Shown: positions 15,654 through 20,305 of the stretch, piece by piece
Layout of the letters: each line of letters begins with the position of its first letter
Position numbering within the stretch: the first letter of the stretch is position 1
UHGV virus genome: UHGV-0119636
From: a virus
Strand: one strand, 5' to 3'
Length of the DNA stretch: 27,711 nt
Position numbers and translations under genes: made by a program
The notes under the pieces: generated by a model
The model's input: only the letters and a program-made list of their open reading frames with translations
Database searches by the model: none
Told to the model about the DNA's origin: nothing

Positions 15654-15863
15654 CTATTTACTCCGTGATAAGAATATGTCCAATGCTTCTAGGTTAGTTA
15701 ATCCAAGAACCTCTTTTAACTTAGCCGCTTCATTTACCGTAAATGCATCAAATCCATTTAGCTTACGATAAAAAGAAGATCTGTTGATGTCGATCAGATC
15801 AGCGGTCTTAGCCACGTTCAATCCCTTTTCGACTATCTTGCCTTTTAATTTATTCGCATTCAT
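15654..15863 (-). CDS. Cro-like small HTH regulator, 69 aa
   Basis: ATG at 15863 with SD GAGAGGTGA; helix-turn-helix-like LNVAKTADLIDINRSSFYRKL; divergent from the plus-strand repressor-like gene. Confidence 0.6.
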   Translation of the reverse strand: MNANKLKGKIVEKGLNVAKTADLIDINRSSFYRKLNGFDAFTVNEAAKLKEVLGLTNLEALDIFLSRSK

Positions 15864-15908
15864 GCACATCACCTCTCGCTGTATTTGTCGCTTATCTGCA
15901 ACAACACG

Positions 15909-15987: not shown

Positions 15988-16016
15988 TTGCATATATGCG
16001 ATTTTGTGTGTATCAT
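15988..16016 (+). promoter_or_regulatory. Putative sigma-A-type promoter for the repressor-like gene
   Basis: TTGCAT, 17-nt spacer ending TGTG, then TATCAT; overlaps the palindrome GCATATATGC. Confidence 0.45.
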
Positions 16017-16088
16017 ATGGATTGATAAGAGAAGAATAAGAAAGAGTCCTAAGACTCATCTTCGCGATAGTATAAAGGAGTTAACCGA

Positions 16089-16685
16089 ATGACAATAGGA
16101 CAAAAAATAAAAGAATTACGCAATCAACTTAATATGTCGGTGGATGATCTTGCTGTGAAACTGGGTAAGAACCGTGCGACTATCTACCGCTATGAACGAG
16201 GAGATATCGAGAACCTCCCTCTCGATGTACTAGAACCATTAGCAAATGCTCTTGAGACCACACCTGGTTATTTAATGGGATGGGAAGAAACTACGAAAAA
16301 GAAAGAGCCTTCAATTATCGATGAAGTTACCATGGGTGACGTTTTTAAAGCGTTACGTCTAGGAAGTAATTTATCGATAGAGGAATTTTCGCATGAGATT
16401 GGATTATCTGCCCAAGACATAAGCAATTATGAAGCAGGAAAGACTCCTATACCTGTAAATATAATTAATCTTGTTGCTGATTTCTTTGGCATATCAATAG
16501 CGGAAATAGTTAAGGCACACAAAAACAGCGAAAATAGAACGCCTTCTGGTTTCGAAATGAAAAAGGAACGATTTGAACGTTTTAAAGTTTGGAATAAAGA
16601 GTTTGGACGAATACATTTTACTGATGAAGAAATCAATAAAATAATGGAATATACAAGGTTCTTACTTAGCCAAAGAAGACAGTAA
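16089..16685 (+). CDS. Tandem-HTH XRE-family repressor-like regulator, 198 aa
   Basis: SD AAAGGAG; two XRE-type helix-turn-helix units (residues about 1-65 and 80-140); no peptidase S24-like C-terminus seen. Confidence 0.75.
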   Translation: MTIGQKIKELRNQLNMSVDDLAVKLGKNRATIYRYERGDIENLPLDVLEPLANALETTPGYLMGWEETTKKKEPSIIDEVTMGDVFKALRLGSNLSIEEFSHEIGLSAQDISNYEAGKTPIPVNIINLVADFFGISIAEIVKAHKNSENRTPSGFEMKKERFERFKVWNKEFGRIHFTDEEINKIMEYTRFLLSQRRQ

Positions 16686-16770
16686 GTCTACATAGGTTTA
16701 CTCTATTTAAAGGAGGTGATGCCTGAATTCAGTTCATCGTAGAATTTACATCAAAGGAAAGGTGGAACCA

Positions 16771-18348
16771 ATGACAACGTTTGATATGAACAACGCTGTA
16801 GACAATGCGTTCGGTATGGACGTATATGCTATCTATCTTCGGAAAAGTCGAGCCGATGTAGAAGCAGAAAAACTTGGAGAAGGAGAAACACTAGCAAGGC
16901 ATAGAAAGATACTAACAGAACTTGCTGCTAGAAAAGGATTGTATATCGGTAAGATTTACGAGGAAATTGTATCTGGTGAAACAATCGAAGCTAGACCTGA
17001 AATACAAAAACTGATAGAAGATTGTTATAAAGGGAAATATAGAGGAATCCTAATAGTAGAAGTTACTCGTCTATCTCGTGGTAATCAAGGAGACGCTCAA
17101 AAAATACTCGACTGTCTCAAATATTCGAATAGAAACAATGGTGTATTAGTTATCACTCCTACTAAGACTTATGACGTTGCACACAGCCAAGAAGACGAAG
17201 AATATATGGAGTTTGAATTGTTTATGTCTCGTCGAGAATATAAGATGATTCAAAAGCGTATGGATCGTGGCCGTAAACAAGCAGTCGTAGAAGGAAACTT
17301 CATGGGTAGTTACCGTCCCTATGGATATGACATCTTAAAAACCAAGACCGGACGAACACTTATACCGAATGAAGATGAAGCTCCTATCGTGAAAATGATT
17401 TACGAATGGACAGTTAACGATAATTTATCTCCTTTCAAGATAGCTGAGCGTTTAACTAATATGGGTGTTCCTACTTATTATGGTGAGAAGGATTGGTCTA
17501 AAGAAACAGTTAAAACCATTTTGACGAATCAGACATACATGGGTAAAGTTCGTTGGAATGATCGAATGACTGTTAAGACTATGGTCGACGGAGAACTTAA
17601 AGCTACACGACCTCGTTCAAATCATTCCGATCACTTCATGCTATATGATGGAAAACATATGAAACACGCACTCGTCGACGAAGAAACATTCAAAGCAGCC
17701 TCCTCTCGCTTTCATAACGATAGGACAAGATCAAATCTAAAACTTGTTAATCCTCTTGCAGGACTTCTATTTTGTAAGAAATGTGGTAAATCTATGGGTT
17801 ATCAATCATATAGACATAAGAAAAACGGACCAATGGATCGATACAATCATAGACAGTCTGCTAATGGATGCAAGGTTAAGTCAGCAGTTGCTGAGGATGT
17901 TATAAAAGCTGTTATACATGCTTTGAAACTTTATATAGAAGATTTCGAATTTAAGTTAGACAACACTCCAGATGTTGACGAAAATTCAATCAATACGCAG
18001 CTCGAAGCTTTACAAAAAGAAATACGAAAATCCGAACGAAAACTTGCTAAGCTATTCGATTCTTGGGAAGATGAGAAGATAACAGATAATGAATTTGTTC
18101 AAAGGAAAGCCGTCCATAATCAGAAGATAGAAAATATAAAGAGGCAAATGGAAGAACTCGAATATTCGATACCAGAAAGAGAAGAATATGAGGATAAAAT
18201 AATATTGCTGTCTGAAGCACTTGTCGCTATCACAGACGAATCGCTTGACGCAGATATTAAGAACGAGTATCTTAAAAGAATCATTGATAGAATAGAGTTT
18301 AGTAGAGAGAATAACTCAGAGTTTATACTAGATATAGACTTATGCTAA
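16771..18348 (+). CDS. Large serine recombinase (integrase-type), about 525 aa
   Basis: ATG at 16771 after AAAGGAAAGG (track start 16762 is GTG); N-terminal YAIYLRKSR catalytic-serine region, Cys-rich zinc-ribbon CKKCGK...C, C-terminal coiled coil. Confidence 0.8.
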   Translation: MTTFDMNNAVDNAFGMDVYAIYLRKSRADVEAEKLGEGETLARHRKILTELAARKGLYIGKIYEEIVSGETIEARPEIQKLIEDCYKGKYRGILIVEVTRLSRGNQGDAQKILDCLKYSNRNNGVLVITPTKTYDVAHSQEDEEYMEFELFMSRREYKMIQKRMDRGRKQAVVEGNFMGSYRPYGYDILKTKTGRTLIPNEDEAPIVKMIYEWTVNDNLSPFKIAERLTNMGVPTYYGEKDWSKETVKTILTNQTYMGKVRWNDRMTVKTMVDGELKATRPRSNHSDHFMLYDGKHMKHALVDEETFKAASSRFHNDRTRSNLKLVNPLAGLLFCKKCGKSMGYQSYRHKKNGPMDRYNHRQSANGCKVKSAVAEDVIKAVIHALKLYIEDFEFKLDNTPDVDENSINTQLEALQKEIRKSERKLAKLFDSWEDEKITDNEFVQRKAVHNQKIENIKRQMEELEYSIPEREEYEDKIILLSEALVAITDESLDADIKNEYLKRIIDRIEFSRENNSEFILDIDLC

Positions 18349-18408
18349 ATGGTGGCTTTGCTGCCTGTAAGACCTGCACTAAAATGGTGTAGGTAACTTT
18401 TTCCCCGA

Positions 18409-18458
18409 CATATATATCATGGTTGTGTTTCTTTTATATCGCCACCATGATATATATC
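18409..18458. repeat. Inverted repeat CATATATATCATGG / CCATGATATATATG, 22-bp spacer; candidate attP or operator
   Basis: 13 of 14 bp match; sits just after the recombinase stop and before the small paralog genes; a second inverted pair TGGTGGC/GCCACCA flanks it. Confidence 0.3.
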
Positions 18459-18504
18459 ACAGGGAAACTATTCTAAACGTTGATATATCAAGGAGGAGAT
18501 ATAC

Positions 18505-18756
18505 ATGAGAATAGTATGGAAAGACAGTGCGCCTAAAACAAAACCTTGGTTGACGTTCAAATATAGAGAACATATCGTTAGCCAATATGGAGATGGATGG
18601 ATTACCGATATACCTGGTGATAACAATATCTATTTTCCGAGAGAGTGTGCTTATAATGCAATCGATAAGTCTCTAGGTGGAAAGACACGAAAAGCTAATC
18701 CTCAAAGACATAAATTAGGAATAAAAGTTATTGGTAGAAAGGACGATGTATCATGA
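18505..18756 (+). CDS. Small protein, MRIVWKDS family, copy 1, 83 aa
   Basis: Strong SD AAGGAGGAG; stop overlaps the start of copy 2 (ATGA). Confidence 0.6.
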   Translation: MRIVWKDSAPKTKPWLTFKYREHIVSQYGDGWITDIPGDNNIYFPRECAYNAIDKSLGGKTRKANPQRHKLGIKVIGRKDDVS

Positions 18757-19004
18757 GAATCGTATGGAAAGATAGTCATAAGCCAAAAGAATATGAACCT
18801 ATGAAATATCGAAATATTTACATCTTCGGTACTCCTGAAGGATGGGAAGTAAATATAAAAGGAGATAATAATCTATACAAGACTCATTACTGTGCTATGA
18901 ATGCGATTGATGATTACTTTGGAGATTTTGGAGAACGTGGTACAGAAAAACGTAAACGATATGGAATACAAATAATAGGTAAGAAAAATGATGAGACTGC
19001 ATGA
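18753..19004 (+). CDS. Small protein, MRIVWKDS family, copy 2, 83 aa
   Basis: Shares MRIVWKDS, GW, GDNN-Y, CA-NAID and GI-IG-K-D motifs with copy 1. Confidence 0.6.
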   Translation: MRIVWKDSHKPKEYEPMKYRNIYIFGTPEGWEVNIKGDNNLYKTHYCAMNAIDDYFGDFGERGTEKRKRYGIQIIGKKNDETA

Positions 19005-19012
19005 ATCTCAAA

Positions 19013-19046
19013 AGCCACTTCCTTTTCTGGAGGTGGCATATTTTTA
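19013..19046. terminator. Bidirectional intrinsic terminator between convergent genes
   Basis: Hairpin GCCACTTCC-TTTTCT-GGAGGTGGC followed by ATATTTTTAT; lies between the plus-gene stop at 19004 and the minus-gene stop at 19053. Confidence 0.6.
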
Positions 19047-19052
19047 TCTAGG

Positions 19053-19595
19053 TTAGACATTTCTATTTTCGTATGACGTAAATTTTACATTTGTGTACTC
19101 GTTAACCAAAAAGCTACATGCTTCATTAACTGTTTTAACGACGGATTCCCCTTCTATATAACTCTGATAATTCCTTCTTTGATTTTCAAATTTAAGATCA
19201 GGTTCAACCATGGTATCTACACTTAACCATATTAGTTCCGTAGTATAGTCTTCGGTAAAATATCCTTTTATAAAAACCTCTTTCTTTCCAACCGTTCCGA
19301 TTAGTTTTATAAACGACATATCATGCTTCGTCAGATTAAACGCATATCTTATTCCTTTTACATATTGCCCGCCAAGTTTCCTCGACTTAATTGTTTCATA
19401 GTAATTATCTTTATTGTTGTTCTTTTTATGCCACTCATCCGATATACAAATCCACATTAAAAGTTCGCTTAAAGTTGCAACCATGGATATGCTATTTTGT
19501 TTGTCGCTTGTGCTTAAATATTCATGAAATCTTTTATGAGATTCTCTTAATCCATGGTTTATATACATTAGCCTAAATTCTTCGACACTATTCAT
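19053..19595 (-). CDS. Hypothetical protein, about 180 aa, accessory (moron) candidate
   Basis: ATG at 19595 after SD AGGAGGA; no peptidoglycan-hydrolase motifs recognised; own promoter region with the palindrome GGAAATTTCC upstream. Confidence 0.55.
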   Translation of the reverse strand: MNSVEEFRLMYINHGLRESHKRFHEYLSTSDKQNSISMVATLSELLMWICISDEWHKKNNNKDNYYETIKSRKLGGQYVKGIRYAFNLTKHDMSFIKLIGTVGKKEVFIKGYFTEDYTTELIWLSVDTMVEPDLKFENQRRNYQSYIEGESVVKTVNEACSFLVNEYTNVKFTSYENRNV

Positions 19596-19662
19596 TATCT
19601 GCATTCCTCCTTTTATCGTAATATTCGACCATATAGGAGAAATTTCCTTTTAACCATATGAA

Positions 19663-19700
19663 GAAAAATAAAAGGGGCTGTTTTATTCGCCCCAATTATT
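19663..19700 (-). terminator. Intrinsic terminator after the lysis operon
   Basis: Stem GGGGC/GCCCC with A-tract and T-tract on either side, immediately after the stop at 19701. Confidence 0.55.
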
Positions 19701-20009
19701 TTACATCTTGTGTGAAATCTCCTCGCAATGCTTTTCCAATGATTTGATTCGTTCTTCGTGACCCTGATTTTGAATTTTCAGCTCGTCTATTTCAGATCCA
19801 TGATTCGTAACCCGAGTCTTCAAGTTATTAATCATCTCGGTCAAGAAGTTTATAGTCGCGTTGAGTTTGATTATGTTTTCGTTTAGCTTTTCGATAGGCT
19901 CATTTTTAGAATGTTCTTCCTGAGTAATATCCTTCCTCAGTTTCATATAGAAAGCGAACACTGAGCCTATGACTGTTAAGACAATGATTATAACTTGATT
20001 CTCTGCCAT
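19701..20009 (-). CDS. Membrane-anchored coiled-coil protein, 102 aa, lysis-associated
   Basis: N-terminal helix VIIIVLTVIGSVFAFY, then a coiled-coil-like remainder; start 3 nt after the holin stop. Confidence 0.55.
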   Translation of the reverse strand: MAENQVIIIVLTVIGSVFAFYMKLRKDITQEEHSKNEPIEKLNENIIKLNATINFLTEMINNLKTRVTNHGSEIDELKIQNQGHEERIKSLEKHCEEISHKM

Positions 20010-20011
20010 AG

Positions 20012-20305
20012 TTATTTTTCCTTCGCTGTATTATTATCGTCTTTCTTACCTTCTACAAATCTACTAAATCCCTGATGTAGACCTGTAGATGCCAGACCCA
20101 TAACTGCACCATATACGATGGAATCGACAGAGATGCCGCTTACTGCCGTATTCAATGCTGCGCCGACAACAGCCAGGATGACTGGAATATCGTCGTTAGG
20201 GATACGTTTTAAAAAAGTCGCATGTTTGATGATATATCCAACCACCAGACAAGCGACCATTACTACAAGTACGAAATGTTCAGTTAAAATTTTTGCGAAA
20301 TCCAT
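20012..20305 (-). CDS. Putative holin, 97 aa
   Basis: Three hydrophobic segments (FVLVVMVACLVVGYII, IPVILAVVGAAL, IVYGAVMGLASTGL) and a charged C-terminus; placed after the tail-fibre genes. Confidence 0.5.
   Translation of the reverse strand: MDFAKILTEHFVLVVMVACLVVGYIIKHATFLKRIPNDDIPVILAVVGAALNTAVSGISVDSIVYGAVMGLASTGLHQGFSRFVEGKKDDNNTAKEK

Follow-up and report, generated by a model that had tools for sequence, protein, structure and literature searches.

The stretch of DNA analysed here, hereafter the window, spans 27,711 nucleotides of the virus genome UHGV-0119636 and is part of a temperate phage. Its early genes run leftward from a cro-like gene (15654–15872, minus strand), an XRE-type repressor is encoded on the plus strand (16089–16685), and an intergenic region of 156 nt (18349–18504) separates the gene of a large serine recombinase, the integrase, from two paralogous genes encoding proteins of 83 residues (Table 1). 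Beyond these small paralogs lie the late genes, which are convergent, on the minus strand, and include a holin gene (20012–20305). A megablast search of positions 16000–20000 against the INPHARED phages returned no match and no close relative. Several relatives are carried on contigs of 89–102 kb, and a complete genome in this group may measure about 95 kb, a large size among temperate phages of Clostridia. One homologue of the small proteins is labelled 'Herelleviridae sp.' in its source.

Table 1. Features between the integrase gene and the end of the small paralog genes, in window coordinates
Feature	Position	Strand	Basis or remark
Large serine recombinase (integrase)	16762–18348	+	Pfam domains, PHROG 95 integrase, solved-structure match
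Terminator-like hairpin ACCTGCAC-TAAAATG-GTGTAGGT and T-tract	18372–18404	+	Terminator scan (hairpin 18372–18394)
Full inverted repeat, maximal extent of the proposed attP	18400–18467		24-nt arms, 88% complementary
Predicted functional attP, ~52 bp, −26 to +26 around the crossover	18408–18459		Inference
Integrase-proximal arm CATATATATCATGG, outer part of one proposed attP half-site	18409–18422		Pairing across 29 sites
Putative crossover dinucleotide, TT on the plus strand (AA in the sense of xth)	18433–18434		Inferred
Inner half-site TATATCGCCACC	18435–18446	−	Compared with the L104 attB and the L025 and L028 junctions
Integrase-distal arm CCATGATATATATC	18445–18458		Kept unchanged beside host xth DNA in L112
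12-bp palindrome TTGATATATCAA	18480–18491		Just before the ribosome-binding site
Two 83-aa paralog genes	18505–18756, 18753–19004	+	43% identical to each other

Gene callers place the integrase start at the ATG at 16771, which yields 525 residues, and the GTG start yields a product of 528 residues, in which the Pfam Resolvase, Recombinase and Zn_ribbon_recom domains are all present. The nearest solved structure is that of the SPbeta integrase SprA/YokA (9dxh, E 1.7e-47, residues 14–479), and the only solved relatives with E below 1e-5 in a PDB sequence search were SPbeta SprA (YokA) itself and a SprA–SprB fusion. An exact look-up of the 528-residue GTG-start product gave no match; the identical 525-residue integrase is encoded on seven metagenome contigs, all of them in phage form, and at least two of these contigs derive from human-gut metagenomes. 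Relatives of the integrase were collected from 55 IMG/VR loci and 22 genome loci. Genome contigs gave matches to an alignment-based query and no match to a single integrase sequence. More than 30 relatives, with integrases 57–97% identical to that of the window, have kept the site described below.

The terminator-like hairpin at the end of the integrase gene flanks the proposed attP and lies outside it. It is kept in relatives with compensatory changes, and the integrase stop codon there usually falls in its loop. In the window, the integrase stop codon is separated from the hairpin by a 34-nt piece (18349–18382), at the end of which the integrase 3' end is found a second time (gacttatgcTAA ... 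gacctgcacTAA). This piece is present in the closest relatives (L111, L114–L117) and missing from L001–L011, in which the integrase reads through to a second TAA within the hairpin loop; the piece has the look of a short insertion or duplication by which the integrase stop codon was shifted.

The two small proteins belong to a family of about 80 residues with the pattern MRIVWKDS...GW.TD.PGD.NIY...NAID (L001–L021, L045, L075, L087, L106–L119), a member of which is found across the attP from the integrase in every relative examined. They fall into no Pfam or PHROG family and have no PDB sequence match, and an AlphaFold2 model (pLDDT 74) has no fold match in the PDB or BFVD. The 48-nt gap between the second paralog gene and a convergent gene of 183 codons contains another terminator-like hairpin (19014–19037, GCCACTTCC...GGAGGTGGC and a T-run), which probably ends both transcription units.

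The inverted repeat starts 52 nt past the integrase stop codon, with arms at 18400–18423 and 18444–18467 and its geometric centre at 18433.5. A sequence-only reading of this DNA had described a 14-bp inverted repeat with a 22-bp gap; the repeat is present and is stronger than described, except that the second arm ends in C and not in G, so that 13 of the 14 positions pair. The perfect core of the repeat is 13 bp long (ATATATATCATGG/CCATGATATATAT) and the 22-nt spacer (18423–18444) reads TTGTGTTTCTTTTATATCGCCA. Complementarity is concentrated between 11 and 24 nt from the centre (13/14 positions, against 4/10 at the inner positions), and the outermost seven pairs (18400–18406 with 18461–18467) are lineage-specific and overlap the T-tract of the terminator-like hairpin. 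In the 27.7-kb window, a single site reaches 13 or more complementary positions out of 14 at 11–24 nt from a centre; 300 dinucleotide-preserving shuffles contained on average 0.01 repeats of the same geometry, and three shuffles had any.

The repeat had further been proposed to be nested in a TGGTGGC/GCCACCA pair, which does not hold. GCCACCA (18441–18447) lies inside the repeat, across the boundary between the spacer and the second arm, and its supposed partner TGGTGGC (18350–18356) reads TGCTAGC in the closest relatives, L111 and L114–L117, with integrases 97.5% identical to that of the window, and belongs to the 34-nt piece that is missing from L001. The third partial copy of the arm reported before the ribosome-binding site is real and forms a perfect 12-bp palindrome, with a 10/11 match to the arm motif (ATATATCAAGG at 18483–18493), and it is not part of the attP: it is missing from L001, L003–L006 and L015, and in L002 it varies independently of the arms. 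Sequences that differ from the palindrome at no more than two positions are not enriched in the window. In a close relative (L113:3570–3990), an insertion of about 440 bp between the second attP arm and the ribosome-binding site of the small gene replaces the palindrome and contains an ORF of 100 residues on the opposite strand.

The order of elements is constant among phage forms, running from the integrase gene through the hairpin with its T-tract, the inverted repeat and the ribosome-binding site to the small gene starting with MRIVWKD. We aligned 29 distinct phage-form sites without gaps, each centred on its best dyad. The central AA is invariant in 29/29 sites, and the arms are 86% complementary, compared with 73% in column shuffles; sliding the partner by one to three columns left only 14–51% of the arm cells paired. 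Changes on both sides were observed in 10 of the 14 arm pairs across these sites, indicating that the two arms co-vary. The 22-bp spacer is asymmetric yet conserved, with the consensus GGnGAYnTn AA AnnAnCAC....

To reach contexts of the window's own lineage, we followed homologues of the small proteins and then the loci of identical proteins. One such protein (P0121), 95% identical to a window small protein, is encoded on L111, L112 and L114–L116. Four of these loci (L111, L114–L116) have an integrase 97.5% identical to that of the window and an attP that equals window positions 18407–18464. The remaining locus, L112, comes from the 96.5-kb contig ERZ27317063 k141_24985 and is 88% identical to the window DNA over the 1.9 kb that they share. 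It is identical to the phage form from window position 18433 rightwards (TTTATATCGCCACCATGATATATATCACAGGG onwards), comprising the second arm, the third palindrome and the small gene. To the left of the junction it reads ...GAAGTGTGTGCTACA, the reverse complement of NVAHTSYDLKNSKSNRGNSGF...GSDHCPISLEIDL with its stop, and the flank ...CGTATGAAGTGTGTGCTACA is the reverse complement of NVAHTSYDLKNSKSNRGNSGFTDEERQ...GSDHCPISLEIDL with its stop, a complete C-terminal part of the host exodeoxyribonuclease III (Xth) with a Pfam Exo_endo_phos match. The phage form and L112 diverge between window bases 18432 and 18433. By its sequence, L112 is the attR of the window lineage in an integrated relative.

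The other products of such an integration were sought by pattern scans. A scan of IMG/VR for both half-sites of the window lineage recovered the L001 contig only, and a scan for the integrase-side half-site recovered L001 and one chance match (L120), so that the attL of this lineage was not retrieved. Our searches did not recover the empty site of the L112 host, and an integrated copy of this very phage did not turn up among the contigs with an identical integrase. A prophage of the window lineage is predicted to end with the integrase gene, the first arm, TTGTGTTTCT and TT, followed by the reverse-complemented 5' part of xth.

More distant relatives provide both kinds of junction. Six loci contain the integrase-side junction (L025, L023, L024, L028, L030, L041). 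In L025, a Lawsonibacter metagenome-assembled genome with an integrase 65% identical to that of the window and no replacement cassette (see below), the integrase gene is followed by the terminator, one arm and TGGCGATATA AA CGTGGCTCAC / CGTGGCTCACGAGGAG. Past the AA the sequence reads GGDINVAHEEID, which is the 3' part of the exodeoxyribonuclease III gene (GGDINVAHEEIDLKNPK...), and then come an MTHFR-type gene and other host genes, in agreement with L105, where xth lies beside the MTHFR gene. The reverse complement of the window spacer, CATGGTGGCGATATA AA AGAAACACAACCATG, equals L025 up to the centre and differs just after it. The other five loci (L023, L024, L028, L030, L041), among them L024 from an isolate of Hominisplanchenecus faecis, have a full-length xth convergent with the integrase gene; there the 5' part of host xth ends in ...GGAGATCTG AA and the phage half-site AGAATCACAGCCATCATC, a homologue of the integrase-proximal half-site of the window, follows.

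Junctions on the small-gene side within xth were found, besides L112, in L045, L048 and L110, all of which retain homologues of the integrase-distal arm. L045 and L048 were retrieved with a degenerate attR pattern consisting of the reverse complement of the Asn-Val-Ala codons, TT, TATAnCGCC and the arm. Both contigs begin at the junction (...GATCTCCTCGTGCGCGACG TT TATAGCGCCACCATGATATATAC) and continue with the ribosome-binding site and a small gene starting with MRIIWKD. L110, a 168-kb NCBI contig, has a junction of this kind too, and host genes lie on its far side. Two further matches to the pattern (L047, L049) were rejected as chance matches, and L046 proved to be another attP.

Both junctions are present on a single contig in L030, where they delimit an element of about 6.6 kb (L030:540–7100). 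The order is the 3' part of xth, attR, two small genes, a Mu-F-like head protein gene, the integrase gene, a phage-borne part of xth, attL and the 5' part of host xth; it has a few ORFs besides these and is probably a decayed prophage. Rejoining its host halves gives TGCGGAGACCTG AA TGTGGCCCATAAG, an attB that reads in frame as CGDLNVAHKPID, and rejoining its phage halves gives GGTATGTATGATGGTGGTGATATA AA TACAACACACCCATCATACATACC, essentially the free attP of L075 and L087. Comparison of L030 with these two phage forms confines the exchange to AA(T).

An empty attB is found in L104, which together with L105 was the useful outcome of a search for homologues of the Xth C-terminal part, most of whose matches were partial gene calls. 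It reads TGCGGCGACCTG AA CGTGGCCCATGAGGAGATCGACC (AA CGTGGCC), with homology to the L025 junction in its right half. The L104 attB matches attP only in GGCGAY-T-AA, the flanks being different, and a weak dyad, GATCT...AGATC, can be seen by eye. The inner half-site of the window is related to this target, as its reverse complement, GGTGGCGATATA (G-G-D-I), resembles host xth just 5' of the crossover.

The AA dinucleotide, which is non-palindromic, is thus common to the 29 attP sites, the empty attB of L104 and the attB rebuilt from L030. We infer from these sequences that strands are exchanged at this AA, the first two bases of the Asn codon in the CGD(L/I)N motif of Xth, which corresponds to the TT at the centre of the window repeat. 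All of the evidence is comparative and is drawn from metagenome assemblies, in which chimeras can occur; against this, at least ten independent contigs, obtained in different projects, have the same junction. The exchange point is resolved by sequence to 2–3 nt.

Our data also reveal that part of the family rebuilds the reading frame of the gene it enters. In the phage form of a sister group (L075, L087, L026, L027, L079, L081), a 3' part of xth lies between attP and the integrase gene. This cassette comprises about 115 codons and a short linker, is convergent with the integrase gene and overlaps its stop codon. In integrated members of the group (L023, L024, L028, L030, L041) the Xth reading frame is rebuilt to full length, with 21–22 residues inserted at the CGD(L/F)N motif, where KPVI-CGD is also present twice; the activity of the rebuilt enzyme is only putative. 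We attribute this duplication and insertion to the xth 3' part that the free phages carry between attP and the integrase. The L024 Xth aligns with Bacillus subtilis ExoA (5cfe) in two blocks, residues 1–145 with 1–146 and residues 156–270 with 136–251, and KKPVILCGDL is therefore duplicated around the junction. Phage 21 and e14, which integrate in icd, are prophages that bring a replacement 3' end of their target gene, and the sister group resembles them in this respect, whereas the window phage has no cassette. In the literature that we searched, coverage of which was incomplete, we found nothing relevant on serine integrases or prophages integrating into exodeoxyribonuclease III.

The sequence-only reading had proposed a candidate attP in this region and had set the position of prophage junctions as its test. 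Such junctions were found, and they lie at the centre of the repeat and not elsewhere. Since the junctions map to the repeat centre, we conclude that window positions 18400–18467, with a core at about 18408–18459, are the attP of the integrase encoded at 16762–18348, a reading to which we assign a probability of about 0.93.

Arm symmetry alone would fit an operator or a hairpin too, and it is the spacer and the junctions that decide between these possibilities and an attP. The operator had been named as the alternative, and a repeat serving only as a dyad site for a regulator of the two small paralog genes would agree with its position 40–100 bp upstream of the small-gene start codon, with the related palindrome adjoining the ribosome-binding site and with the co-variation of the arms, as expected for a dimeric DNA-binding protein; the arm motif occurs five times in the window against 1.0 expected, and three of the five copies are in the attP region. 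Such a site does not predict, however, that integrated relatives break at the exact centre of the repeat, or that the spacer is asymmetric, conserved and similar to the host target. Moreover, the palindrome is missing in many relatives and varies independently of the arms in L002, and a promoter scan detected no sigma-70-like promoter in 18395–18504. We consider an operator-only function very improbable; an operator is not needed to explain the repeat, and a second, regulatory role of the attP is possible.

Folding of the repeat into an RNA or DNA hairpin, which might end or attenuate transcription between the integrase gene and the small genes or form a structured 5' leader, would account for the stability of the 171-nt region (−53.8 kcal/mol, z = −4.7 versus shuffles) and for the compensatory changes that maintain arm pairing. 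A DNA site bound by a dimer predicts the same arm symmetry, however, and a hairpin leaves the junctions unexplained. Its arms would be AT-rich, its loop would be 22 nt of conserved sequence and no T-run follows 18467, in disagreement with an intrinsic terminator, whose G+C-rich stem encloses a short loop and runs straight into a T-run; the terminator scan chose the separate hairpin at 18372–18394, and Rfam returned only sub-threshold matches to generic microRNA hairpins. A hairpin function in place of an attP is accordingly highly unlikely. A chance repeat, with the true attP elsewhere, for instance in the 48-bp gap at 19005–19052, might be suspected from the low-complexity, (TA)n-like arms and from the AT-richness of phage intergenic DNA, and we regard it as the least credible possibility, scarcely worth entertaining: only 0.01 such repeats are expected per shuffled window, position and geometry are conserved in more than 30 relatives, the junctions map to the repeat, and the gap holds the terminator-like hairpin described above and stays contiguous in the integrated L112 and L106.

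Identification of the repeat as an attP agrees with what is known of related sites. Classic attachment sites of large serine recombinases are about 40–60 bp long, form an imperfect dyad with a non-palindromic central dinucleotide that sets the polarity, and lie beside the integrase gene, with an attB that is little like attP outside the centre. In these systems attB is also the shorter site, its zinc-ribbon motif lying about 5 bp nearer the centre, and for LI integrase the spacing of the half-site motifs tells attP and attB apart. Length, dyad, central dinucleotide and position, and perhaps the limited resemblance of attB, are shared between the window and the attP sites of the Listeria phage A118 (LI integrase), Bxb1 and phiC31, the integrases of which have other target genes and fell short of an E of 1e-5 when PDB sequences were searched with the integrase of the window. 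The closest parallel is SPbeta SprA (YokA), with its attB in spsM of Bacillus subtilis. Its minimal attP of 52 bp consists of 16-bp inverted arms and a 16-bp core, strands are exchanged at a central AA, and the prophage splits a protein-coding gene, within which its target is located (PMC5499854). The window attP has this layout in common with SprA, including the exchange at AA and the coding-gene target, and it differs in several respects: the target of its lineage is xth and not spsM, its spacer is 22 bp long and partly symmetric, whereas attP and attB of SprA have an identical core of 16 bp, none of the neighbouring genes could be recognised as a SprB counterpart, and nothing ties excision to sporulation. 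We predict a functional extent of about 52 bp for the window attP because of the conserved columns in the alignment of 29 sites and the 52-bp minimal attP of SprA (PMC5499854).

By homology with SPbeta SprA and other large serine recombinases, which recombine attP with attB unaided in vitro, integration would proceed as follows. Two integrase subunits would bind the two attP half-sites, in each of which the outer arm, together with an inner 10 bp of partial symmetry, would provide the two DNA-binding motifs. This complex would pair with an integrase dimer on attB inside the host exodeoxyribonuclease III gene (xth/exoA) to form a synaptic tetramer; the four strands would be cut at the central dinucleotide with a 2-nt 3' stagger, and the half-sites would be swapped by subunit rotation and religated. 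The resulting prophage would split xth within CGD(L/I)N, at bases one and two of the Asn codon, leaving the integrase gene at one prophage end, convergent on the 5' part of xth, and the small paralogs at the other, by the 3' part. Since the window phage has no replacement cassette, its integration is predicted to truncate Xth to ...GGDIKETQP followed by a stop. Excision would probably involve a separate directionality factor, as in these other systems.

After integration, the small genes lie at the opposite prophage end from the integrase, and the crossover is about 70 bp upstream of the small-gene start codon. This position raises the question of whether the 83-residue family could be a directionality factor or another sensor of the integration state, with small-gene expression rewired by integration, an idea that we consider doubtful. 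A specific role as a SprB-like factor was set aside, as the small proteins resemble no PDB entry in sequence and no PDB or BFVD model in fold, and it is their position that suggests the idea. The scan detected no promoter between the crossover and the small gene, and possible −35/−10 pairs across the crossover, inspected by hand, were unconvincing. If the idea were true, expression of the small genes would be linked to the integrase gene in the circle and would occur beside antisense host xth in the prophage.

The collected loci also contain several variants of the site. In two relatives (L010:11600–11665 and L025:11060–11130), and only in these, the 22-bp core is flipped relative to the integrase and small genes, opposite to all the others, with arms and flanks unflipped; the integrase-side junction of L025 accordingly bears the 3' part of xth and not the 5' part. 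This suggests that the core has been inverted between the arms in the course of evolution, and the arms might mediate such an inversion and thereby flip the orientation of the prophage. In L105 (620–750), two tandem units of 59 bp break up the xth gene at the same AA. Within each unit, 10 nt separate one phage half-site from the other, which makes the order attL, 10 nt, attP, 10 nt, attR, with no phage between; the units would be an artefact of assembly at the inverted arms or else a miniature remnant. A further relative, with an integrase 69% identical to that of the window and an identical small protein in its attP and integrated forms (L106/L109 versus L107/L108), has an MFS-transporter gene as its target instead of xth. 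The centre of its site is again AA, and it exemplifies a switch of target in this integrase family.

The attP described here is an ordinary kind of element and leaves the known working of such sites unchanged. It provides a closely mapped attP/attB pair, with the crossover assigned at the level of a dinucleotide, for a SprA-related integrase of an uncultivated human-gut phage, and such pairs are raw material for serine-integrase genome engineering and for the recognition of prophage boundaries in gut Clostridia genomes. The codons for the conserved CGD(L/I)N motif of Xth, a nuclease of base-excision repair, are a recurrent target of the integrase family; some of its members inactivate xth, others bring a replacement 3' half, and one has moved to an MFS transporter while keeping the AA. 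Together they form a small natural series for how serine integrases change their targets.
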